This document shows, in pieces, positions 2,934 to 59,428 of a stretch of 64,000 bases of DNA. Position numbers and translations under genes: made by a program. The notes under the pieces are model-generated. The model saw only the letters and a list, made by a program, of their open reading frames with translations. It searched no databases and was not told where the DNA came from. Origin of the DNA: a virus; IMG/VR virus record IMGVR_UViG_3300002461_000323, positions 32,001-96,000 of that record; one strand, given 5' to 3'. Numbering within the stretch: position 1 is the first letter of the stretch; every line of letters starts with the position of its first letter.

Positions 2934-3440
2934 ATGACGTCTCAGAAGAAGGTCAAGATCAGTGACCTGTTCCCACCTCCCCTCGTGGTTGATCTCGGCC
3001 ATGCCAAGGTCGAAATCCAGGGCCTGTCGATCGCACAGATCGCCCTCCTGCTGGAGGAGCACGCGGAAATCCTGTCCGGTCTGCTGGACACCAAGACCCC
3101 GCCTGACGTCGTCGGCCTGTTGAAGACCAGCCCTGTGCTGGCAATGCAATTGATTGCACTGGGTCTGAACCTTGAAGCCGAAGAGCACGAGCAGGTGCAG
3201 GGCCTACCGGCGTCTGTGCAGGTGGCGATCCTGTTGGGTGTCTGGGATGCGACGGTGCCTGAGCTAAAAAAGCTCGGGGCGAGGTTCAGCGGCTTGTTGT
3301 CGGTCGCCCAAAAGAGCCTCGCCCAAAGCCCCGGCCCCGACGCTCCGGCAACGCGTCCTCCGATCCCGGATTTTCAGAGTCCCTTGCCGTCGGAGCCGAC
3401 TTCCTCGTCGGACACGGTGGATACTCCCTCAGCGACGTAG
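2934..3440 (+). CDS. Tail assembly chaperone (gpG-like)
   Basis: Lies between tail tube and tape measure; contains in-frame slippery site A-AAA-AAG at 3266-3272. Confidence 0.8.
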   Translation: MTSQKKVKISDLFPPPLVVDLGHAKVEIQGLSIAQIALLLEEHAEILSGLLDTKTPPDVVGLLKTSPVLAMQLIALGLNLEAEEHEQVQGLPASVQVAILLGVWDATVPELKKLGARFSGLLSVAQKSLAQSPGPDAPATRPPIPDFQSPLPSEPTSSSDTVDTPSAT

Positions 3441-3601
3441 GAGGGATGAACCTGCGCCAGTTCCGGGCTTTCCTCAAGCTCGCCTGGGCGCGGTACATCG
3501 ACAGCCAGATAACGCTGGCTGTGAACGCTAGGCAGGCCCATAATGCCGAAGGTGACGGCTTCAAGAAGTACTTGGAGGACCTAGCCGCAAGCAAGGACTG
3601 A
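2934..3601 (+). CDS. Tail assembly chaperone gpGT (-1 frameshift product)
   Basis: The -1 frame after 3272 is open to TGA 3599-3601 (..DFLVGHGGYSLSDVGGMNLRQFRAFLKLAW..), ending 2 nt before the tape measure ATG. Confidence 0.75.
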
Positions 3602-3603
3602 CC

Positions 3604-6600
3604 ATGGCAGAAACGACCCTCGACATTCTCCTGCGGGTACGGAACCAGACCGGGGCCGTGCTCTCGCAGGTGTCATCCGATCTGTCGAAGATCAGAACCG
3701 CTCTGGCGAGCACCAGCCAGAACACCAAGCAGACGAACTCTGACTTCCAGCGCCTGTTCTCCACTCTGGCATCCGGCAAGGGTGAGATTCAGGGTGTGGT
3801 CAGCGGATTCCAAGGCCTCGTGGCCTCGCTCGGCGGGCTCGTGCTCGTCAACCAGATCAAAGGGCTGGCGGATGTAGCTGCCCGTACCCAGGTGCTCGGC
3901 ACGGTCCTGAACGAGATCGGGCGGGCCAGTGGCTTCTCTCGTGCAGAGATCGAGAAGTTCGACGCGGCTGTACAGAAGGCCGGTATCACTGCTGGCGCAT
4001 CCCGTCAGACTCTGACCCAGTTCCTCCAAGCTGGCCTCGACCCAGCCAAGGCCGCTGAGCTTGCGCGGGCTGCCCAGAACTTTGCGGTGGTCACCGGTGA
4101 GAACTCCAGTGCTGCGCTCTCCCGGCTGGTGACGAACATCCAGCAGATTGACGTGACCGGCCTGAAGTTCCAGGGCATCATCGTGGACATGACGAAGGTC
4201 ACAGCCGACTTCGCACGAGAGGTTGGCAAGACCCCGCAGGAACTGACCCGCGCTGAACAGCAGACGGCGCTGTTGAACGAGGTGCTGCGCAAGGGCAAGG
4301 AGTCCGGCCAGTTGTACGTCGCGGCAATGGGTGATGTCGGCAAGGCCGTGGGCTCGCTCTCGCGCTTGCAGGAGGAGCTTCAGAACTCACTGGGTGAGAA
4401 GCTGCTGCCCGCGTACAAGGCGCTGGTAGACGAGTTCGGCGTGTTCCTGAAGCAGGCGAAGCTGGTGTCCGACTCAGTGGACGCGAACGGCACGGCTGCT
4501 GAGGCCTTCGGAGAGTCGGTGCGGGCATCCGCACGGTCCCTGCGTGAGTTCGCACTGCTGCTCGTCGAGTACAGCGGTGTGGTCACGACATTCGTGCAGG
4601 CACTGCTTGGGTTCGCCGCGCTCCGGGCAGTCGCGCTGGTCTTCACGTTCATCACCAGTCAATTGGCGTTCCTGGGCCGGGCTCTGGCTACTGCCGGAAC
4701 CGCCATCGGAATCTTCGCTCGTGGCTTCTCGTTCCTGACCGCGCTGGTCTCCGGGGGCACACTCGCACTCTCCGCGCCTTTCCTGCTTGTGCTCGGAGCC
4801 ATCGGCGCTGCAGCCGTGGCCGTGGGCGCGTTCGCTCTCCAGTTTGAGCCGGTTGCCCGTATCGCGAACATCGCGCTGGCATCGATCTCCCTGGCGTACA
4901 ACCGGTTGATCGGAGACTCCGAGGGTGCAGCCGCTGCTTCCGACGCACTGTTCAACGCCGTTACCCGTGCTGGAGACGGCACCGAGGCACGCGCCGCTGC
5001 AGCCGCCAAGCTGATCGAGGTCACCCGCGAGCAAGTGGAGTTGCAGACGACGCTGATCGACCTTGAGAACGCGTTGGTGCAGGCGAACAAGACTGGCACT
5101 GCAGAGCAGCAGAAGACCGCCAAGGCTGCGTTCGATGCAGCGAAGAAGCAGAACGAAGACCTGAACGCTCAGCGGGTGGCGCTCGCCCGTGCTGGGGATG
5201 TCAGTGGGGCCACCCAGGAACTCATCCAGAAGAAGGAAGAGGAAGCTGCGGCCATCCGCAAGATCGAGATCGCGCTTGCCAAAGTCTCGGACGCTGGCAT
5301 CAAGGCACGTGAAGAGCTTGGCATCCCCGCTGGTCTGGGTGACAGCCTGCGTGCGGACGTGATCACCGCTGAGTTCGGGAAGGCCGCAGGCGCGTTCAAG
5401 AACCTGGTGGCCTCTTTCGACGCCGACCAGAAGGTGTACGCTGCGAACGTCAAGAAGTTCCAGGCAGACCTTGAGAAAGAGGGCGTTGCACCAACCGAAG
5501 CGCTGGTTCAGGCCACTCAGAAGGCTCGGGATGCCGTGCGGTTCTCGGTCAACGATCTGCGCATCGGAGTGCAATCGATTGCAGACGCTGCCAAAGCACC
5601 GGATGAGATCGCCGCTGCGATTGACCTGATCGTCAACGCTGCTGGCCGTGCGGTCACGAGTGTGGACGAACTCAAGCGCACCCTGGAGTTCCGGCTGGAG
5701 GCAGAGAGCCTGCGCCGGGTAGAGCAGAACATGCAGGGCTACAGCGAGGCCACGAAGGAGGCCCAGACCGCGCTCACGCTCCTGCGGACGGTCACCGACG
5801 ACCAGGCACGGGCCACGCTCGATCTCAGCCAGGCGTACGCGGACGTGGGTGTCAGCGCTGGCCGGGTGTTCGAGAACCTTTCGTTCGCCGGTCGCTCGGG
5901 CATCCGCAGCCTTGTGGACGGGTTCACCGGTCTGCGGTCCACCGTGGCCGAGACCAGCCGGATTGTCGATCAGGGCACCCGGCAGCAGCTTGCATCCGCG
6001 AACGGCACGTTTCAAGAGAGCCTGCGGTTGCTGGCCGACAGCGAGCGGCGCAAGCGTGAACTCGCCCAGCAGACGGTCGGAGGCAGCCAGACGTTCGCGG
6101 CGGCCCTGCGTGCGATCGAGGAGCAGTCCGTGCGCGAGCGCGTGACCATCAACCAGACCTACTACTCCCGCTTGAAAGAGCTTCGGGACAACGCGCTGTC
6201 GCAGTTCAAGACGTTCGCGAACACGATCAAGGGTCTTGACGAGGAGATTTTCCAGAACGGTGTCAACCGTGAGAAGAGCCTGCGCGACCTCAAGCGTCAA
6301 GGGCTGACCGAGGAGCAGCAGTTCGCCGACCGCCTTCTGGAGATCGACCAGCTTGCCGGGGCCGAGCGTCTGGCGATCTCGAACAAGCAGTTCGACCTGG
6401 CAAAGCAGTTGAACCAGCAGCGGATTCAGGCGGCATCCCAGCTTGCGAACTCGGGCGGTGTGCCACAGGAGGTTGCGCTTGCACGTGCGACCGAGGCCAC
6501 GAACAAGGCGTACACGGACCGTGACTCGCTCCTGCGCGGCATCCGTACCGAGACCGACAAGGCAGCCCGCACTCAATTGCAGACGTACGAGGAACTGGGC

Positions 6601-7170
6601 AAGGAGATCGGCAAGGTCGCTGAGACCCTGGCTGGTCTGGCGGGCGAGCAGCTTGCGAAGGTGAAGTTCGAAGTCGGTGCAGGCGAGACCGAGAAGCTGT
6701 TGGCAGCCCTTCAGCAGCAGTTCGACCGCAACCCGCTGCGCGTGACCTTCCAGGGCCAGGTGAACGGCCAGACGACGACCGTGCAGCGGTTCGCCAGCGG
6801 TGGCGGCGTCCAGGGCTCGGGCACGGATACGAGCGACAACATCCCAGCCTGGCTGTCGCCCGGTGAGTGGGTGTCCCGTGCCAAGGCCGTGCGGTATTAC
6901 GGTGCCGAGGTGTTCCGTCGGCTGAACAACATGACGCTCCCGCGCTCGGCTCTGCGTCTGGCTACCGGTGGTCTGGTGCCTGCGGGTGTGGGCATGCCGG
7001 TGTTCGGCGGAAGCTCCCGTGGCCCATCAGAAGGCGGCGAGACCACGAACACCCCCCGCCGTGACATCGTGGACGTGAACCTGAACATCGGCGGACGCCG
7101 TGTCAGCCTGTACGGTGAGCGCCAGCAGGCGACCGCGCTCGTTGACGCACTCGCCCAAACGAAAGTCTGA
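3604..7170 (+). CDS. Tape measure protein
   Basis: 1188 aa, Ala-rich and helical with a central hydrophobic segment; C-terminal FASGGGVQGSGTDTSDNIPAWLSPGEWV motif. Confidence 0.92.
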   Translation: MAETTLDILLRVRNQTGAVLSQVSSDLSKIRTALASTSQNTKQTNSDFQRLFSTLASGKGEIQGVVSGFQGLVASLGGLVLVNQIKGLADVAARTQVLGTVLNEIGRASGFSRAEIEKFDAAVQKAGITAGASRQTLTQFLQAGLDPAKAAELARAAQNFAVVTGENSSAALSRLVTNIQQIDVTGLKFQGIIVDMTKVTADFAREVGKTPQELTRAEQQTALLNEVLRKGKESGQLYVAAMGDVGKAVGSLSRLQEELQNSLGEKLLPAYKALVDEFGVFLKQAKLVSDSVDANGTAAEAFGESVRASARSLREFALLLVEYSGVVTTFVQALLGFAALRAVALVFTFITSQLAFLGRALATAGTAIGIFARGFSFLTALVSGGTLALSAPFLLVLGAIGAAAVAVGAFALQFEPVARIANIALASISLAYNRLIGDSEGAAAASDALFNAVTRAGDGTEARAAAAAKLIEVTREQVELQTTLIDLENALVQANKTGTAEQQKTAKAAFDAAKKQNEDLNAQRVALARAGDVSGATQELIQKKEEEAAAIRKIEIALAKVSDAGIKAREELGIPAGLGDSLRADVITAEFGKAAGAFKNLVASFDADQKVYAANVKKFQADLEKEGVAPTEALVQATQKARDAVRFSVNDLRIGVQSIADAAKAPDEIAAAIDLIVNAAGRAVTSVDELKRTLEFRLEAESLRRVEQNMQGYSEATKEAQTALTLLRTVTDDQARATLDLSQAYADVGVSAGRVFENLSFAGRSGIRSLVDGFTGLRSTVAETSRIVDQGTRQQLASANGTFQESLRLLADSERRKRELAQQTVGGSQTFAAALRAIEEQSVRERVTINQTYYSRLKELRDNALSQFKTFANTIKGLDEEIFQNGVNREKSLRDLKRQGLTEEQQFADRLLEIDQLAGAERLAISNKQFDLAKQLNQQRIQAASQLANSGGVPQEVALARATEATNKAYTDRDSLLRGIRTETDKAARTQLQTYEELGKEIGKVAETLAGLAGEQLAKVKFEVGAGETEKLLAALQQQFDRNPLRVTFQGQVNGQTTTVQRFASGGGVQGSGTDTSDNIPAWLSPGEWVSRAKAVRYYGAEVFRRLNNMTLPRSALRLATGGLVPAGVGMPVFGGSSRGPSEGGETTNTPRRDIVDVNLNIGGRRVSLYGERQQATALVDALAQTKV

Positions 7171-7172
7171 AC

Positions 7173-7562
7173 ATGCCGCTTACCCTCGGATCATTGACCC
7201 TCGCAGACGGCCTTGTCTGGGCTGAGGAGTTCCAGTACACCGGGATCGTCCAGGAGGTCCGGCAGTCGCTGGGTGGACGACCACAGGTGTACTCGGGGAC
7301 GATCACCGGACCGATGCCGATCACGCTCACGAGCTTGGACGACCAAGGCTGGCAGACGATCGCTGTTGCCCGGGAACTGCAGGCTATGGCAAAATCCCTT
7401 GGACAGTTCACGCTCGTGCTCGGCAGCCGGAGTTTTCCGGTCGAGTTCAGGCACTCCGACCAACCGGTGCTGCAGGTCACGCCGTTGATCCCTCGAACAG
7501 ACCCTGATGACGAAGATTACTGCACGGTCGTCATCAAGCTGGTCTGCTATTCCCCACCCTAA
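7173..7562 (+). CDS. Distal tail-like protein
   Basis: Immediately after tape measure; LVWAEEF...RQSLGG...PITL pattern. Confidence 0.55.
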   Translation: MPLTLGSLTLADGLVWAEEFQYTGIVQEVRQSLGGRPQVYSGTITGPMPITLTSLDDQGWQTIAVARELQAMAKSLGQFTLVLGSRSFPVEFRHSDQPVLQVTPLIPRTDPDDEDYCTVVIKLVCYSPP

Positions 7563-7571
7563 GGAGCTTTC

Positions 7572-8573
7572 ATGAGCATTCAAACTTCCGAGATCATCTG
7601 GCGTCGTCCGACCGAGGTGTCCGATGCCCCCACCAACGGTGGCCGCATGGGCTCGGTCTCGATCATCAGCGGGGTCAAGAACTCGCTGTTCCCGAGCGCC
7701 AGCCAGGCCGAGCGTACTGCCGGTTCCACGAAGTATCGCAAGGCGTTCGCGCACATCGCAAACGACGACACGCTGGCACTGCTCGAAGGCAAGGTCTTCC
7801 TCACGCGTCCGACGCCCGGCGATGACCGGGTGACGATCTTCCCGGGTACCCAGTTGGACACCCAGGCATCGATCACCGGTGCTGAGGGCCAGTACGGGAT
7901 CGGCACGTTGAACGCGAACGCGAACATCGGTCAGACGACGATGGCCGTGTTGGTTGAGAACGCGGCTGACAACATCTTCCGTACGGGCATGGTCGTGCGC
8001 GTGAGCGACCGCCAGACGATCGACGGCGCAGGGAATGAACAGTTCCTGACGCTCTCTGGCAACGCCACGTACGTGGGCAACGTCGCGACCTTGACGTTCA
8101 CGACCACGCCCCTGCAGTTCAACTTCCTGGCGGCTACCCCGACGTACGTGAGTTCGTGCATCACCGACGCCGTGGTCGAGGCCGAGGTCGTGGACTACGC
8201 TGAAGTCACGGGTACCGGCACGTACGACGAACTGGGCTCTCCGATCCAGCCCCACGGCATCGGTTCGATCGAACAACTGTGGACACTCACGTTCACCTCC
8301 AGCACGGTGTTCACGATCGTCGGAGACACCGTGGGATCACTGGGCACCGGCAACGTGAGCACGAACACCGTACCATCCAACCCCGCGTACTCCAAGCCGT
8401 ACTTCACGCTGTTGAGCGCGGGCTTCGGCGGCTCCTGGGCACCCGGGAATACCATCCAGTTCCGCACCCACCCTGCGGCCATCCCGGTCTGGCACAAGCG
8501 GGTGATCCCTGCGGCTGCCAACAGCTTGAGCGCTAACTTCACCCGAGTGGGTGTGGACGGTGAGAGCGAATGA
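7572..8573 (+). CDS. Tail tip/baseplate structural protein (paralog family A)
   Basis: NSLFP..AERTAGSTKYRKAF and C-terminal IPVWHKRVIPA motifs shared with 12085 and 13615 products. Confidence 0.6.
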   Translation: MSIQTSEIIWRRPTEVSDAPTNGGRMGSVSIISGVKNSLFPSASQAERTAGSTKYRKAFAHIANDDTLALLEGKVFLTRPTPGDDRVTIFPGTQLDTQASITGAEGQYGIGTLNANANIGQTTMAVLVENAADNIFRTGMVVRVSDRQTIDGAGNEQFLTLSGNATYVGNVATLTFTTTPLQFNFLAATPTYVSSCITDAVVEAEVVDYAEVTGTGTYDELGSPIQPHGIGSIEQLWTLTFTSSTVFTIVGDTVGSLGTGNVSTNTVPSNPAYSKPYFTLLSAGFGGSWAPGNTIQFRTHPAAIPVWHKRVIPAAANSLSANFTRVGVDGESE

Positions 8574-53699: not shown

Positions 53700-54503
53700 A
53701 TGGATAACGCCCAGTACCGCAAGAACGTGATGAAGACCTTGAGCATCGGGCCAGCCAAGCTCGGCCTGCGACAGGTCACCCGCAAGACCCCACGCATGAA
53801 CGTGTTCAATGCCGTTGTGGGGATTGCAACTGAGACCATGGAGTTGGCAAAGGGCCTCAGCCCCTACCTCTCCGGTGCCTCGCAGTTGACGGAGCCGATG
53901 AAGATCAACGCCTTCGAAGAATCTGGTGACATCGGCTACTACGTGACCGTGGCCGCCAAGTTCCTGAAGGTCAAGCTCCCCGGCTCCGGCAAGAAGTCCA
54001 AGCTCAAAGGCATGACCCGCACTGAAGCGGTCCTGCAGATGAACGGCCTGGCTGGCGACATGCTCGATCTTGCCAAGAAGTTCATGTACGGCCCGAAGAT
54101 GGTCAAGACCGGTGAGAAGACCGTGACCAAGAAGTCCGTGGTGCTGGACGCCATTGGTCTGAAGGTGGTCGAGAGCACGGACGCCGCTGGCAAACCCGTG
54201 TACAAGTACCAGAAGGTCACCAGCACCGTGGACGTCATGGGCATCGATCAGGCGGCTACCGAAGCGCTGTTCGCTGAACGTGAAGCCAAGATCAAGGACC
54301 TGCTGGAACAGTTCGCGCCGCTCTATTGGGCGTTCGTGTACGAGACCTTCGGTGTGCCGCCTGCGAACGTGTTCGTCGGCAACATCGCGAAGCTCAGCCA
54401 GCGTTACGGTGAAGGGTATTTCGAACTGTCCGAAGCCGAGCACCGGGACACCGATGCCGAGATCGAGGCAATGAGCGGGGCGGCAGCAGCAGTGGCGGCG
54501 TGA
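53700..54503 (+). CDS. MazG-like nucleotide pyrophosphohydrolase
   Basis: GIATETMEL..EESGDIGYY..NIAKLSQRY motifs; SD AAGGAG. Confidence 0.75.
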   Translation: MDNAQYRKNVMKTLSIGPAKLGLRQVTRKTPRMNVFNAVVGIATETMELAKGLSPYLSGASQLTEPMKINAFEESGDIGYYVTVAAKFLKVKLPGSGKKSKLKGMTRTEAVLQMNGLAGDMLDLAKKFMYGPKMVKTGEKTVTKKSVVLDAIGLKVVESTDAAGKPVYKYQKVTSTVDVMGIDQAATEALFAEREAKIKDLLEQFAPLYWAFVYETFGVPPANVFVGNIAKLSQRYGEGYFELSEAEHRDTDAEIEAMSGAAAAVAA

Positions 54504-54522
54504 TGCAATTGATTGCGCCATA

Positions 54523-54551
54523 TTGACAAACCAAACGGGCCGGGCTATAAT
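54523..54551 (+). promoter_or_regulatory. Sigma70-type promoter
   Basis: TTGACA-N17-TATAAT, 5 bp downstream of palindrome 54504-54517. Confidence 0.9.
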
Positions 54552-54587
54552 TGACAGTCAGGCCCCCTTCAACATCAGGAGTATTTC

Positions 54588-55424
54588 ATGAGCGAAGACC
54601 AAGCAGCAGCCGCAACCGACGGCGCACAAACCCAGGTGACGGAGACGGCAGAAGCCGCGACCCTGCCTCCCACGGCTCTCGCAGCCAGCAAGGCCACGAA
54701 GTCCGGCGACCTGATCGCTGACATCGCGCACGAGATCGAGACCATGACCAAGGTCAAGGCTCTGAATCGCGCCGAGAAACTGGCCGAAGACATCGAAGCC
54801 AACTACTTCAAGCTGGGTGGCCTGCTGAAGCTGATCCTCGCACAGCAGTGGTTCGAGGGCTTCCCCTCGTTCGGCGCGTTCGTGCTGGAGAAGTTCGGTT
54901 TCGCCGAGCGCAAGGCCCATTACCTGATCAGCATCTACACCCAGTTGGTGGACAAGCAGATTCCCTGGGAAAAGGTGCAGCACCTCGGCTGGACCAAGCT
55001 CAAGGACCTCGCGGCGGTGCTCACGCCTGAGAACGTGGACGATTGGGTGGCGAAGGCCGAGAAGGTCAGCGTGGCCGAACTGCAGGCGATGCTCAAGGGC
55101 ACTGGCGGCAACGAAGGTGGCGAGCCCAGTTCCGCTGGCACGTCCGACGTCGTGTCGTGGAAGGTCAAGCTGCACAAGGACCAGCACGAGTCGGTGAACA
55201 TGGCGCTGGCGAAGGCCAAGGGCGAAATGCAGACCGACCACGACAACGTGGCGCTGGCCGCAATCTGCACCGGCTACCTTGCCAACAGTTCGGGTGTGGT
55301 GGCCTCCGGCCCCGCCGCCGATCCCGTGGAGACCTTCAAGTCCATGGGCTACGAGGCAGTGTTGGGCGTGTTCGAACAATCGTTCCCGAACATCGACCTT
55401 GAAGTCACGGTGAAAGCCGCGTAA
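54588..55424 (+). CDS. Putative DNA-binding protein (DUF3102-like helical/HTH region)
   Basis: YFKLGGLLKLI..SFGAFVLEKFGFAERKAHYLISIY..LGWTKL motif pattern. Confidence 0.5.
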   Translation: MSEDQAAAATDGAQTQVTETAEAATLPPTALAASKATKSGDLIADIAHEIETMTKVKALNRAEKLAEDIEANYFKLGGLLKLILAQQWFEGFPSFGAFVLEKFGFAERKAHYLISIYTQLVDKQIPWEKVQHLGWTKLKDLAAVLTPENVDDWVAKAEKVSVAELQAMLKGTGGNEGGEPSSAGTSDVVSWKVKLHKDQHESVNMALAKAKGEMQTDHDNVALAAICTGYLANSSGVVASGPAADPVETFKSMGYEAVLGVFEQSFPNIDLEVTVKAA

Positions 55425-55551
55425 GAATGCCGACCTGAGCCTGAGGACGCTAGAGGTGCCACCAATCGGTCGCCTCAGCCTCCTCGGCCACGACGCATGC
55501 CCTAAGTCTGTAGTGGCGTAATCAGGCCTTGTTGAGGTTCCTCGCGGAGCC

Positions 55552-55668
55552 CCAACAGGAGAGCGTAGAAAGTTTGGCTAGGGTCGCTCCCGAACGAGTA
55601 GCAGGAGGTGCCTGTTACCCCGCCAGACCGACCAGTTGTATCAACGGTCACCTATGCTCTCCTGTTGG
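55552..55668 (+). ncRNA. Predicted structured RNA element 1
   Basis: 17-bp closing stem CCAACAGGAGAGCGTAG/CTATGCTCTCCTGTTGG with one G-U pair, enclosing several hairpins; lies between the 55424 stop and the 55700 start. Confidence 0.55.
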
Positions 55669-55699
55669 ATCAACCCGATCCTTCAACGCAGGAGTTCTC

Positions 55700-55996
55700 A
55701 TGTTCTCGACCCTCGCCCGCTACCTGCGTATGTTGTCCCGTCTTCCCACCACTCTGGAGAATCTCATGACCACCCAAGCCGAACTCGTTGAGCAGTTGAA
55801 TGCCTTGACCGCGACCGTGACCAAAGTCCGCACCGAAACCCAGACCGTGCTTGCCCGCGTGGCCGAACTCGAAGCCGCTGTGTTGGCCGGTCAGACGGTC
55901 ACCCCCGAAGTCCAGCAGGCCCTCGACAACCTGGCAGTCGCCGTGGCCGCTGTTGACGCCGAAGTTCCTGACGCCCCGGCTGCACCCGCAGTCTGA
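55700..55996 (+). CDS. Small coiled-coil protein (alternative start at 55766)
   Basis: Both ATGs have SD-like GGAG; Ala/Val-rich helical sequence. Confidence 0.6.
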   Translation: MFSTLARYLRMLSRLPTTLENLMTTQAELVEQLNALTATVTKVRTETQTVLARVAELEAAVLAGQTVTPEVQQALDNLAVAVAAVDAEVPDAPAAPAV

Positions 55997-56029
55997 GCAA
56001 GGAAGTGACAGTCTCTGCCCACAAGGCAG

Positions 56030-56211
56030 GACTGTTACCTAGTGGTTCTGCTGGTCCCGAAAGGGTAATCCGCGTTCAGGCAAGGTAGTGGTGCTCTCCG
56101 GGCGCAAGCCGACAACAATACGGGAGAGCGGGTAGGCAGGTCCGTTTCGAGTCCTTCGCTGAGCCCAAGGTGCACTAAGCGTTGCCCTAGCAGAACCACT
56201 AGGTGGCAGTC
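56030..56211 (+). ncRNA. Predicted structured RNA element 2
   Basis: About 25-bp closing stem whose 3 non-Watson-Crick pairs are all G-U on the + strand; internal GAAA and GCAA tetraloop hairpins; intergenic. Confidence 0.65.
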
Positions 56212-56230
56212 ATAAATTCAAGGAGTGACA

Positions 56231-56671
56231 GTGGCAATCACGATCAAGATAGTTCCGAGCGCAGCCGTGCAATCACTTGCAGCCGCCCAAGAGAAGGCAG
56301 CGGCAGCAGTCGCAACCCCGGTGGCAGTCTCTGCCCCGCCAGAGCCCGCCCCGATTGCCGTGGCCTCTGAGAAGGCGGCAGAAGCAGGAAGCACGTTTCT
56401 GGCAGCACTAGCGGGCAAGGCCGAGGCCCCGCTGCCCTGGGAGGCCGATGAGTCGTACACGATCATGGAGGCGCTGAAAGAGCACTTCGATCGCTCACGC
56501 AAGGGTGAGACCCTGTATCTGCGCAACCGTACGACCGGTCAGATGTTCTTGGTCAAGGGCTACAACTCTGATGACGGCCGAGCCCTGCTGGAGAGCCCGG
56601 AAAAGGCTACACTCAAGCCCGTGATCACGAAGCGCGAGGTCCCGCTCTACGAGCCGTTCTGGAGGTCTTGA
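56231..56671 (+). CDS. Hypothetical protein
   Basis: GTG start after AAGGAG; Ala/Pro-rich N-terminus and globular C-terminus. Confidence 0.55.
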   Translation: MAITIKIVPSAAVQSLAAAQEKAAAAVATPVAVSAPPEPAPIAVASEKAAEAGSTFLAALAGKAEAPLPWEADESYTIMEALKEHFDRSRKGETLYLRNRTTGQMFLVKGYNSDDGRALLESPEKATLKPVITKREVPLYEPFWRS

Positions 56672-56732
56672 CCAACCGCTGTACATGGGTGTGATCCCCG
56701 GCGATAATCAGACTTTAGTCAAGGCCCGACAA

Positions 56733-57536
56733 ATGGCAATCACGGTGAAATACTCGGAGACCGCAGAATCTCCAGAGCCACAGATCAAGCGTCAGAAGTC
56801 CACCCGGGGCCGTCCTCCGGGCGTGGTCGAGACCGCTCCGCGTAAACCGCGCACCGCCCAGAGCGCCCGTCTGCGCCAGTTCAAAGAGAACGCGAAGCTC
56901 CCAGAGGTGGCGGCTAAGATCGTGGAGAAGGTCGAAGAAACCGCTGGCATGACCGACGACCAACTGTTGGAGCGTGCACGGACTGTCCCGGACGCACGTG
57001 GCGGGTACAACAAGGGCGTGCAGTCGATAACCGATGAGAAGGCCGAGCGGATTGCCCTGGCCTACCGGCTGATGATCCGTGGCCTGACAGTCGATCAGGT
57101 GGCAGAGCAGATGGACGTCTCGGTGGCGACTGCCAAGAGCTACCTTGAGGACGTACGCAAGGCCCTGCGGCTTGACCCAAAGAACCTGGACGTCGGTTAC
57201 TACATGGGCGAGAGCTTGAGCTTCTACCAGGAGATCAGGCAGATGGCGCTGCTGCAGGCCAGCCACGGCAAGAACAGCGTGAACGAGAAGATCAATGCCA
57301 TGCGCGTTGCGTTGGAAGCCGAAGAGCGCAAGAACCAGTTCCTGCAGAAGATCGGCGTGTACAGCCCGACCGTGATCGAGCGGATCGAGCGCTGGATGGT
57401 CGCGGGCACCGAGAAGCAGATCGATGAGAGCCCGACCCAGAGCAAGCGCGTGAACCTCGCGGCTGAGATCGGCCGACTGCTTGCAGGCCAGTCCCGCCCG
57501 CTGGAGTCCGGTGGCCCTGAGCCTGTGGGCGGCTGA
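56733..57536 (+). CDS. Terminase small subunit (HTH)
   Basis: RGLTVDQVAEQMDVSVATAKSYL HTH; directly upstream of TerL. Confidence 0.65.
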   Translation: MAITVKYSETAESPEPQIKRQKSTRGRPPGVVETAPRKPRTAQSARLRQFKENAKLPEVAAKIVEKVEETAGMTDDQLLERARTVPDARGGYNKGVQSITDEKAERIALAYRLMIRGLTVDQVAEQMDVSVATAKSYLEDVRKALRLDPKNLDVGYYMGESLSFYQEIRQMALLQASHGKNSVNEKINAMRVALEAEERKNQFLQKIGVYSPTVIERIERWMVAGTEKQIDESPTQSKRVNLAAEIGRLLAGQSRPLESGGPEPVGG

Positions 57537-57538
57537 TC

Positions 57539-59428
57539 GTGCAATCGATTGCAGCCGACGGCCTCGAAGGCCTCGACCCGTTGCACGTGCTCGAACTGGC
57601 AAAGCACAAGCCGGACGTCCTGCTGCAGTGGCTCTACCAGAACCTTGAGAACCCTCCGGAGAAGCTGGACGAGCAGTGGATTCAGGCGATCCATCGTGGC
57701 GGTCGCCGGTCAACTGGACTGCACATCGACCAGGAGTTCACGCTGGCGATGCAACTCAGCCGGTACCCAGTGGACATCGAGACCTTCCTGTTCGGACGCC
57801 ACTACCTGCAGAAAGAGCGCCGGGAAATCTACCCGGAAGTCCTGCAGGAACTGAAGAACATCAACAACCCGAGCGGCCTGCGGATCATCAACCCGTACAC
57901 CGAGGGCGTGTTCACAGGCGGCATCGGCTCAGCCAAGAGTACGACCGCGCTGTACACCAACGCCTACCAGTTGTACGTGCTCAGTTGCTTCGAGAGCCCG
58001 CACGCGACGTTCGGCCTGGACACGGCATCCGAGATCGTGTTCGCGTTCCTGGCGGTTGCCGGTAATGCCGCAGACACCGATTACAGCCGGTTCTACCAGA
58101 TGCTCAAGGAGAGCCCGTACTTCAACCTGGAGTTTCCGTACAACCGCCGTCTTGAGTCGGAGATGCACTTCCCGCACCGCATACAGGTGGTCCCGCAGAT
58201 CAACACCATCGGCCAGAACGTGATGGGTGGGCTGATCGACGAGGTGAACTTCGGTCAGGTGATCCAGAACTCCAAGCGCTCGATCGACGGCGGCACCTAC
58301 GACCAGACGCTGACCGTCTACAACGGCCTGGCTCGACGCAGGAAATCCCGGTTCTTGGGGCAGGGCACGATGCCCGGCATCCTCTGTCTGGTGTCGTCCA
58401 AGCGGTACCCTGGCGAGTTCACGGACAAGAAGCTGGAGGAGGCACGGACTGACCCCAGCATCTACGTGTACGACAAGCGGGTGTGGGACGTGAAGCCCGA
58501 GGGCACGTACAGCGGCAAGCGCTTCAAAGTGTTTCCAGGGTCGGTTCAGCGCAAGCCCGTGGTGATCACGCCCGAGATCGAGATCGAGTTGTCGGTCGAG
58601 GAGAAGGCGGCGCTGATCGAGGTGCCCATCGAGTACCGCAAGGAATTCACGGATGACATGATCGGCTCGCTCCGGGACATCGCGGGCGTGAGCACGATCG
58701 CCAGACACCCGTACTTCCAGAACGTGAACGCGGTGAGCGGGTGCTTCGGCCAGCGCCAGTCGATCCTGAACCTGGAGGCCACGGACTTCGAGACCAGCCA
58801 GCTTCAGTTCTTCGCCAAACGCATCCGCCACCCGCAGCTACCCCGTTGGGCGCACATCGACTTGGGCGTGACCTCCGACAGCGCAGGCATCGCCTGTGGG
58901 TATGTCCCGCAGTTTGTGCTCAGCCCGGACGAGATCGGGATGATGCCGCAGGTTGAATTCGACTTCATTCTGCGGGCAACCCCGCCGCTGAACGGCGAGA
59001 TCAAGTTCTACAAGATCAGGAAGATGTTGATGGCCCTGCGCGAGGCCGGGATGAACATCAAGTGGGTGTCGTTCGACGCCTTCCAGTCTGTTGACAGCAT
59101 CCAGATTCTGCGGAACGCCGGATTCTCCACCGGCAGGCAGTCGGTTGACCAGAACGCGGGCTTCTACGGGGTGCTGAAAACCGCGATGTACGCGAACCGC
59201 GTGAAGGCCCCGCAGCACACCGTCTGCCAGACAGAGATTTTGCGCTTGGAGCGGGACACGCGCACTGGTAAGATCGACCACCCACCAGACGGCTCCAAGG
59301 ATTGTTCTGACGCAATGGCGGGTGTGGTCTACGGTCTGACCATGCGCAGAGAGATTTGGAGCATGCACAATGTCCCATTCAACCAGATTTATCAATCGGT
59401 CAAGGAAGTACAGGTGAAAACAGAATGA
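57539..59428 (+). CDS. terL: Terminase large subunit
   Basis: GGIGSAKST Walker A, LIDEVN Walker B, LVSS, WAHIDLG and KIDHPPDGSKDCSDA nuclease motifs. Confidence 0.88.
   Translation: MQSIAADGLEGLDPLHVLELAKHKPDVLLQWLYQNLENPPEKLDEQWIQAIHRGGRRSTGLHIDQEFTLAMQLSRYPVDIETFLFGRHYLQKERREIYPEVLQELKNINNPSGLRIINPYTEGVFTGGIGSAKSTTALYTNAYQLYVLSCFESPHATFGLDTASEIVFAFLAVAGNAADTDYSRFYQMLKESPYFNLEFPYNRRLESEMHFPHRIQVVPQINTIGQNVMGGLIDEVNFGQVIQNSKRSIDGGTYDQTLTVYNGLARRRKSRFLGQGTMPGILCLVSSKRYPGEFTDKKLEEARTDPSIYVYDKRVWDVKPEGTYSGKRFKVFPGSVQRKPVVITPEIEIELSVEEKAALIEVPIEYRKEFTDDMIGSLRDIAGVSTIARHPYFQNVNAVSGCFGQRQSILNLEATDFETSQLQFFAKRIRHPQLPRWAHIDLGVTSDSAGIACGYVPQFVLSPDEIGMMPQVEFDFILRATPPLNGEIKFYKIRKMLMALREAGMNIKWVSFDAFQSVDSIQILRNAGFSTGRQSVDQNAGFYGVLKTAMYANRVKAPQHTVCQTEILRLERDTRTGKIDHPPDGSKDCSDAMAGVVYGLTMRREIWSMHNVPFNQIYQSVKEVQVKTE

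Follow-up and report, generated by a model that had tools for sequence, protein, structure and literature searches.

Introduction

A perfect double-stranded RNA of more than two helical turns is a standard substrate of bacterial RNase III, and the early mRNAs of phage T7 as well as rRNA precursors are processed at such helices. The T7 sites lie in co-transcribed intercistronic gaps of a phage operon and contain a helix of at least two turns; they are short hairpins with an internal loop and are usually cut once. In the processing stems of 16S and 23S rRNA, distant flanks form a perfect helix, both strands of this helix are cut, and the enclosed RNA is freed. Paired 5' and 3' ends in a long helix are also found in the phi29 pRNA (174 nt), which is linked to DNA packaging and belongs to small protein-primed podoviruses. 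In Neisseria, Correia elements (CREE, or nemis) are present in mRNAs, where RNase III binds or cuts their inverted-repeat hairpin; these elements, the longer of which measure 153-157 bp, carry long terminal inverted repeats and are located 5' of genes inside transcripts (PMC2649163). A further structured phage RNA, the cabRNA of staphylococcal phages, maps within the terS-terL coding sequence and is defined by its binding to a CBASS cyclase (PMC10686824).

Here, a 182-nt intergenic stretch, designated element B (positions 56030 to 56211, + strand), was analyzed in the 105,951-bp genome of an uncultured phage (an IMG/VR contig with 61% G+C, CheckV-complete). All positions in this genome refer to the window, the 64,000-nt stretch that corresponds to bases 32001-96000 of the contig. 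Element B is similar to the T7 sites in its helix of at least two turns and in its place in a presumably co-transcribed gap of a phage operon, but it has a long perfect helix of 25 bp closing 132 nt rather than an internal-loop hairpin of 50-60 nt that is cut once, a difference that counts against a processing function. The rRNA stems are putatively alike in their mode of action; however, they enclose a known functional RNA, whereas the 132 nt of element B have no recognisable identity or excess structure. Element B falls into the size class of the longer CREE and shares their long terminal inverted repeats and their location 5' of a gene, but CREE are multi-copy with a TA target site, and element B was single copy everywhere searched and has no flanking duplication. 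The likeness to the pRNA consists of the length and the paired ends, but the phage described here has a 106-kb genome with a classical TerL, and no Rfam match to pRNA was obtained. Like cabRNA, element B is a structured phage RNA candidate of the terminase gene region, but it is intergenic and upstream of those genes. By analogy, element B would work most like the T7 RNase III sites, the rRNA processing stems and the transcribed Correia elements, while being a member of none of these groups; cabRNA and the phi29 pRNA share only location or size with it.

Results and Discussion

Element B lies in a gap of 234 nt (positions 55997 to 56230). The upstream neighbour is a 98-aa coiled-coil ORF (positions 55700 to 55996, + strand; RBS CAGGAG, ATG at 55700, stop at 55996), and the downstream neighbour is an orphan ORF of 146 or 148 aa (positions 56231 to 56671, + strand; GTG at 56231 or 56225), for which the gene caller gave a product of 146 aa and whose RBS is AAGGAG (at 56220; the RBS and the start together occupy positions 56220 to 56233). 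The 3' end of element B stops 8 nt short of this RBS, as would suit a processing site. Next come the gene of an HTH protein (positions 56685 to 57536, + strand), which occupies the position of the small terminase (TerS), and that of TerL (positions 57539 to 59428, + strand; 629 aa). Sequence searches against the PDB with the two downstream proteins yielded nothing useful for naming TerS. Element B is thus located one gene upstream of the HTH gene and two genes upstream of TerL, in agreement with the initial annotation, which had placed it just upstream of the terminase genes. The order in the operon is the phrog_17202 gene, a second structured element (element A), the 98-aa coiled-coil gene, element B, the 146-aa orphan gene, the HTH gene, and TerL. 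The 146-aa protein was an orphan among 5.8 billion proteins searched and therefore gives no route by synteny to close relatives of element B; in related phages, homologs exist for its C-terminal ~75 aa only.

A perfect sigma-70 promoter (TTGACA-17-TATAAT, 12/12 matches) was found at positions 54523 to 54551 on the + strand, approximately 1.5 kb upstream of element B. Scanning of positions 54300 to 57700 revealed no terminator-like site. The closing helix of element B (P1) does not form an intrinsic terminator either: it encloses 132 nt and is followed by AUAAAUUCAAGG, and no GC-rich, short-loop hairpin with a U-tract was found in the same interval. No credible promoter candidate was detected directly before element B. 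Because of the perfect upstream promoter, the lack of a terminator-like site and the lack of a credible promoter just before the element, element B should be co-transcribed within the operon from the promoter at 54523. The promoter and the terminator-free interval favour a processing element of the operon message, and the absence of an own promoter and terminator argues against a separately expressed RNA acting in trans. Only spurious ORFs of 20-54 aa and no plausible one were found inside element B, which bears out its annotation as non-coding.

The 5' arm of P1 (positions 56030 to 56054, + strand) pairs base for base with the 3' arm (positions 56187 to 56211, + strand) exactly as annotated, and the resulting helix consists of 25 uninterrupted pairs, 22 Watson-Crick and 3 G-U. 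Reverse-complemented, the 3' arm matches the 5' arm at all but 3 of its 25 positions. Each of these departures is U-G (arm positions 6 and 7) or G-U (arm position 24) on the + strand, again as annotated; on the - strand, the uninterrupted run is only 16. All three differences therefore keep RNA pairing on the gene strand, which supports processing at the RNA level and speaks against inert DNA, and binding of a protein to the DNA gives no reason for all arm mismatches being G-T on one strand. Element A contributes a fourth departure of the same kind. The probability of four G-U-compatible departures out of four is ~0.01, under the assumption of neutral substitutions of which about 1 in 3 is compatible, and the argument stands on only 3-4 events.

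The + strand RNA of 182 nt has an MFE of -89.4 kcal/mol (z -5.72), and none of 200 shuffled sequences folded as well. The corresponding values for the - strand RNA are -74.3 kcal/mol and z -3.92. The preference for an RNA over a DNA structure expressed in the initial annotation is consistent with these values and with the runs of 25 and 16 on the two strands, and the gene strand is favoured, as expected for a processed message. Folded as DNA, the inverted repeat also exceeds its shuffles (z -3.6), a point that weakens the case for RNA processing and is in keeping with a DNA-level site.

When the genome was scanned in full, on either strand, for uninterrupted stems of Watson-Crick and G-U pairs with a span of up to ~400 nt, P1 came first at 25, followed by stems of 19, 18 and 17. 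From the base composition, 0.0012 stems of at least 25 are expected by chance, and 5e-5 with at most 3 G-U; the expectation for stems of at least 19 is 0.48, which agrees with the observed background. The P1 helix is real and far beyond chance, and as the longest stem in the genome, it counts in favour of processing. With 25 pairs, it is longer than the two or so turns of dsRNA (~20 bp) that an RNase III processing element needs as a minimum. Excision by this enzyme, proposed in the initial annotation, would thus find a helix that is substrate-like in length and perfection, while the cutting itself is putative.

The interior of element B (positions 56055 to 56186, + strand; 132 nt) has no excess stability of its own. 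Folded alone, it gave a z of -0.05 on the + strand, where 104 of 200 shuffles were as good, and +0.75 on the - strand. All the excess folding stability thus sits in the closing helix, as would be expected of a processing site rather than of a ribozyme or riboswitch with a compact fold. Two near-isoenergetic folds were obtained, a rod-like MFE fold that continues the stem (-89.4 kcal/mol) and a completed branched fold (-87.6 kcal/mol), separated by 1.8 kcal/mol. Of the inner pairings listed in the initial annotation, CCC-GAAA-GGG, GGC-GCAA-GCC within GCUCUCC/GGGAGAGC, GGCAA/UUGCC, and UAGUG/CACUA exist, but they do not make up a unique fold; the GUUCAG/CUGAGC pseudoknot is putative. Likewise, the description of element B as a structured RNA of about 180 nt holds for the 25-bp helix but overstates the richness of the structure inside it. 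The lack of a thermodynamic signal and of a unique fold in the interior argues against a function of this RNA in trans.

GNRA tetraloops typically make tertiary or protein contacts. The interior contains two hairpins of this kind, CCC-GAAA-GGG (positions 56056 to 56065, + strand), which has a pair probability of 0.83-0.85, and GGC-GCAA-GCC (positions 56101 to 56110, + strand), which appears in the branched fold only, nested in GCUCUCC/GGGAGAGC (positions 56093 to 56129). The genome-wide density of GNRA hairpins is 0.077 per 132 nt, and at least 2 such hairpins with stems of at least 3 bp were present in only 0.12% of 5000 dinucleotide shuffles (P = 0.0012). This excess over chance is not explained by a pure processing site or by relic DNA, and it is in favour of a trans-acting RNA. 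A 13-mer at the GCAA hairpin, GGCGCAAGCCGAC, recurs with one change only in a syntenic element of one related phage (L147) among 226 loci.

Element A (positions 55552 to 55668, + strand; 117 nt) is located in the gap between positions 55425 and 55699 (275 nt) and is predicted to form a three-way junction with a 17-bp closing stem that has one G-U on the + strand. Its z is -5.85 as a whole, and the stem has an E of 0.08. Unlike that of element B, its interior is more stable than shuffles (z -3.06 on the + strand and -0.85 on the - strand). Neither an Rfam match nor a homolog in the clade loci was found for element A, and a paralogous origin of elements A and B was discarded, as their similarity is not beyond chance.

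The nearest TerL is only 55% identical to that of this phage, and the nearest cultured phages, Stenotrophomonas phages DLP5, DLP3 and Summit, reach ~50%. DLP5 has no gap at the place corresponding to element B. The members of the clade, phages of ~100 kb, originate from soil, freshwater and sludge metagenomes, and their stretch from the phrog_17202 gene to TerL is variable, 2 to 8 kb in length, and often contains RNA features. In the most syntenic relative, L147, an element of 125 nt (positions 1225 to 1349) with a 22-bp closing stem and a z of -5.5 was found, and further copies are present in L233 (positions 4081 to 4205) and L234 (positions 3967 to 4090). The L147 and L234 elements are 81% identical over 145 nt. 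Their closing stem shows 2 compensatory and 2 wobble changes that preserve the pairing, and a single broken pair. In at least one lineage, long closing helices of this operon can thus be subject to selection at the RNA level, a sign in favour of processing. The L147-type element has no Rfam match and lies directly downstream of an HU/IHF-family gene (PF00216), in an ORF-free gap of ~650 nt upstream of the terminase genes.

The L147-type element and element B occupy the same position in the operon, after the phrog_17202 gene and one small gene and before small ORFs, the HTH gene and TerL. The closing stems of the two elements are long (22 and 25 bp, respectively) and have G-U on the gene strand, and both elements contain the 13-mer GGCGCAA[G/A]CCGAC, which occurs nowhere else in the 226 loci. 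Unlike element B, for which no homolog was found, the L147-type stem has covariation support, and the L147-type RNA is better supported as a new RNA candidate than element B. The motifs in common hint at kinship, but a chained alignment of the two elements was marginal (P ~0.05). A covariance model built from L147 and L234 did not match element B at E up to 10 with default filters; with the filters off, it again gave nothing on element B, and the best score of the region was that of element A (8.5 bits, stem only). Membership of element B in the L147/L234 family was therefore rejected as unproven.

Stem-closed structures were also found in L011, which is the locus of a complete relative of 120 kb (G003), at positions 6798 to 6894 (97 nt, z -5.1) and 5733 to 5869 (137 nt, z -5.7). 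Together with the L147 element, they show that stem-closed structures of relatives stand before RBSs or in the same operon, as would be expected of processing elements. The former ends right before an RBS, and the latter encloses a copy of a dispersed palindrome, TGCAATTGATTGCA, and also an RBS with its ATG; the start site would hence be buried.

Other features of the same region were recorded. ARAGORN detected a tmRNA in L175 and tRNAs in L151 and L206. The tmRNA (positions 3657 to 3990; Rfam score 142 bits, tag ATHALPAAA) is ~0.9 kb upstream of TerL, and the tRNA-Pro of L206 (positions 3027 to 3101) is ~3 kb upstream. The region before the packaging genes is an RNA-gene hot spot in this clade. 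In L003 and L004, a strong, terminator-like hairpin with a U-tract (positions 3799 to 3869) comes after the phrog_17202 gene and is itself followed at once by a copy of the palindrome GCAATCGATTGC (positions 3880 to 3890), which is also dispersed in the phage described here. L195 (positions 3135 to 4742) and L202 (positions 918 to 2675) have a common stretch of ~1.3 kb with 74.5% identity, ~1.3 kb upstream of TerL. This stretch has no + strand ORF of at least 60 aa and no Rfam match at the gathering threshold; it could represent a large non-coding RNA, an opposite-strand gene or an unusual code. The TerL ORFs or matches of L147 (positions 3077 to 5884), L202 (positions 3943 to 6719) and L224 (positions 6001 to 8478) exceed the 629-aa TerL described here by ~300 aa or 0.8-1 kb, which points to an intein or another insertion within this gene.

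We tentatively favour, with a confidence that stays somewhat below even, a reading in which the helix of element B is transcribed with the operon and acts on its message as an RNase III-type processing or stability element. During transcription, a weaker hairpin immediately upstream (positions 56005 to 56038, + strand) would form first. This hairpin, seen in a cmscan alignment, has ~14 bp with one bulge, and its 3' half is shared with P1, whose 5' arm starts with these 9 nt; the hairpin competes with P1 but is much weaker, and P1 wins in a 361-nt fold. Once the 3' arm has been transcribed, the 25-bp helix would displace the upstream hairpin, and we infer that host RNase III would cut both strands of P1. 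Through this cut, the message would be divided just before the RBS into an upstream and a packaging-gene part, and the base-paired ends left behind would change how stable each of them is. The two GNRA loops would be released at the same time in a hairpin-capped RNA of ~155 nt. No RNase III was found to be encoded in the phage genome.

The main alternative, that element B is non-functional or relic DNA, is unlikely, but it accounts for several features of the locus. Element B would be the scar of a rearrangement (by inverted duplication or template switching) or the decayed remains of a MITE-like insert, tolerated and inert in a hypervariable intergenic spot. Its 182 bp with terminal inverted repeats of 25 bp and an interior of 132 bp without excess structure resemble the anatomy of a MITE or Correia element, and rearrangement footprints flank it. 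A ghost gene start (AAGGAAGTGACAGT, positions 55999 to 56020, + strand) repeats the real RBS and start at positions 56220 to 56232, AAGGA(A)GTGACAGT being present at 55999 (to 56012) and again at 56220. Overlapping the ghost start, GTGACAGTCTCTGCCC repeats positions 56321 to 56336 in 15 of 16 bases, and this 16-mer is present as GTGRCAGTCTCTGCCC at 56005 and at 56321. Both repeats are confined to the element B locus in the 106-kb genome. The copy at positions 56321 to 56336 (+ strand) is the third copy of GTGRCAGTC(TCTGCCC); it covers codons 31-36 of the 146-aa ORF and opens a tandem duplicate of the first ~96 nt of that ORF, which correspond to the next ~80 nt. At the protein level, the start of the ORF (positions 56225 to 56400) consists of an Ala-rich unit of ~32 aa followed by a diverged copy of ~26 aa. 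The outer 9-10 bp of P1 are further copies of GTGRCAGTC, one of which is inverted (in the 5' arm). Pairing of the upstream copy with the beginning of the 5' arm gives the weaker 14-bp hairpin mentioned above. Stop-codon readthrough or bypass at the ghost start was also considered and dropped, as the frames do not connect.

Relatives having the C-terminal domain of the 146-aa protein carry no such insert before it; therefore, element B looks like a lineage-specific acquisition at a rearranged gene start. Its uniqueness to this phage is also as expected for a relic. In opposition to an insert of this kind, no target-site duplication adjoins the arm ends, where the flanks GGCAG| and |ATAAA share nothing, and the nearby 13-16-nt repeats stand 8-17 nt off the arms. 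Element B is single copy in the phage genome, and no second copy was found in IMG/VR seeds, plasmids, 5 MAGs carrying related phages or 401 Pseudomonadota genomes. Of the features of a MITE, element B thus has the terminal inverted repeats, but no target-site duplication and, in the collections searched, no multiple copies.

A trans-acting phage ncRNA, in which the excised RNA of ~155 nt would sequester a protein as a decoy or sponge or would serve as an anti-defence RNA, ribozyme or packaging cofactor, is rather unlikely. The closing helix would yield a stable, discrete product, and the 1-4 kb upstream of TerL hold RNA genes in some members of the clade (the L175 tmRNA and the L206 tRNA-Pro) as well as the covarying stem-closed RNA at the syntenic place in L147 and L234. 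Structured RNAs of the terminase region can matter in phage-host conflict, as in the case of cabRNA (PMC10686824). However, no known family was recognised. The Rfam search proposed in the initial annotation was run with Rfam 15 and gave no match in the whole window at the gathering threshold; at E up to 10, only chance-level hits were obtained between positions 55900 and 56350 (at most 13.7 bits against thresholds of 38-108). The suggestions of a ribozyme and of a 6S, Y or packaging RNA in the initial annotation thus found no family match. 6S RNA is a rod whose large central bubble opens both strands, whereas the only large loop of the MFE fold of element B has 24 nt on the 5' side and 0 nt opposite. 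For a Y RNA (YrlA), no TROVE domain was detected in the phage, with positive controls, and no tRNA-like domain was found; a Ro protein might be supplied by the host. ARAGORN detected no tRNA or tmRNA in the window, and no complementary T-stem accompanies the GUUUCGAGUCC stretch. No RVT_1 domain was found in the entire phage genome, which leaves a retron or other RT-associated ncRNA without its enzyme. The readings as a ribozyme, a protein decoy or a packaging RNA gained no support, and the lack of any partner gene in the phage (Ro, reverse transcriptase or RNase III) bears against a trans-acting RNA in general.

No conservation was detected in any collection searched, which is a weakness of both the trans-acting RNA and the processing helix. 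Blastn of element B against GenBank phages and plasmids gave no match, and 4 IMG/VR contigs of relatives, identified by way of the phrog_17202 protein, contained no homolog according to blastn and nhmmer. None was present in about 86-90 TerL-clade loci from metagenomes and MAGs (767 kb), and a single-sequence covariance model of element B had no match over 811 kb of related loci. Seed scans of IMG/VR gave only single-arm chance matches for an arm 15-mer, 7 chance matches for an interior 16-mer and 0 matches for the two-GNRA-hairpin pattern. The failure of the L147-family model to score element B also stands against a trans-acting RNA. Very unlikely is the more specific proposal that RNase III excises a stable trans-acting ncRNA of a new class, which might for instance divert a defence or RNA-binding protein of the host as a decoy or assist in packaging as a cofactor, and that element B is one of several unrelated stem-closed cassettes kept between the regulatory and terminase genes of the clade beside the L147-type RNA and the L175 tmRNA.

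It is quite unlikely that element B acts at the DNA level, with the inverted repeat and the GTGRCAGTC cluster binding a phage protein as a pac-type packaging region or an operator. The location relative to TerL and the HTH protein in the TerS position is suitable for such a site, and the syntenic L147 element comes after the HU/IHF-family gene. In addition, 3 of the 4 copies of GTGRCAGTC in the 64 kb lie within 325 bp here, along with the inverted copy in the 5' arm, but the motif is not enriched in the whole window (4 observed and 2.4 expected). Known pac and cosB regions comprise short direct or dispersed repeats and not a perfect 25-bp inverted repeat 132 bp apart. The contig ends are uninformative in this regard: the ends of the complete G003 genome map elsewhere, at ~8 kb, in this genome, and the contig ends were accordingly taken as assembly breaks and not as packaging ends.

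A cis-acting RNA switch, in which the upstream hairpin, P1 and the third motif copy (positions 56321 to 56336) compete and set downstream translation or decay, is highly improbable: the first 9-14 nt of the 5' arm have three alternative partners, an interior copy (positions 56086 to 56095) of the arm segment at positions 56040 to 56049 can pair with the 3' arm, and element B abuts the RBS, but P1 by far exceeds every alternative in stability and prevails in the ensemble, the RBS is sequestered in no predicted fold, neither a conserved core like a ligand pocket nor a riboswitch family match was found, and the duplication history explains the repeats equally well.

Conclusions

Element B is an orphan and a statistically exceptional, genuine structure, whose function is read from its anatomy and context. 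On its own, its worth is that of a candidate and not of a settled discovery. If processing does take place at P1, it shows how an uncultured clade of ~100-kb phages, which are distantly related to the Stenotrophomonas DLP5-like phages, uncouples its regulatory genes from its packaging genes post-transcriptionally. Such a module, if true, would go beyond the T7 paradigm, since a discrete RNA is also set free by the cut. Element B by itself may be outweighed by the wider pattern, as the region before the terminase genes repeatedly holds such features: element A, element B, the L147-type RNA, a tmRNA and a tRNA. Because stem-closed structures and RNA genes are repeatedly found there, the variable pre-terminase region of this clade is a good place to look for new phage RNAs.
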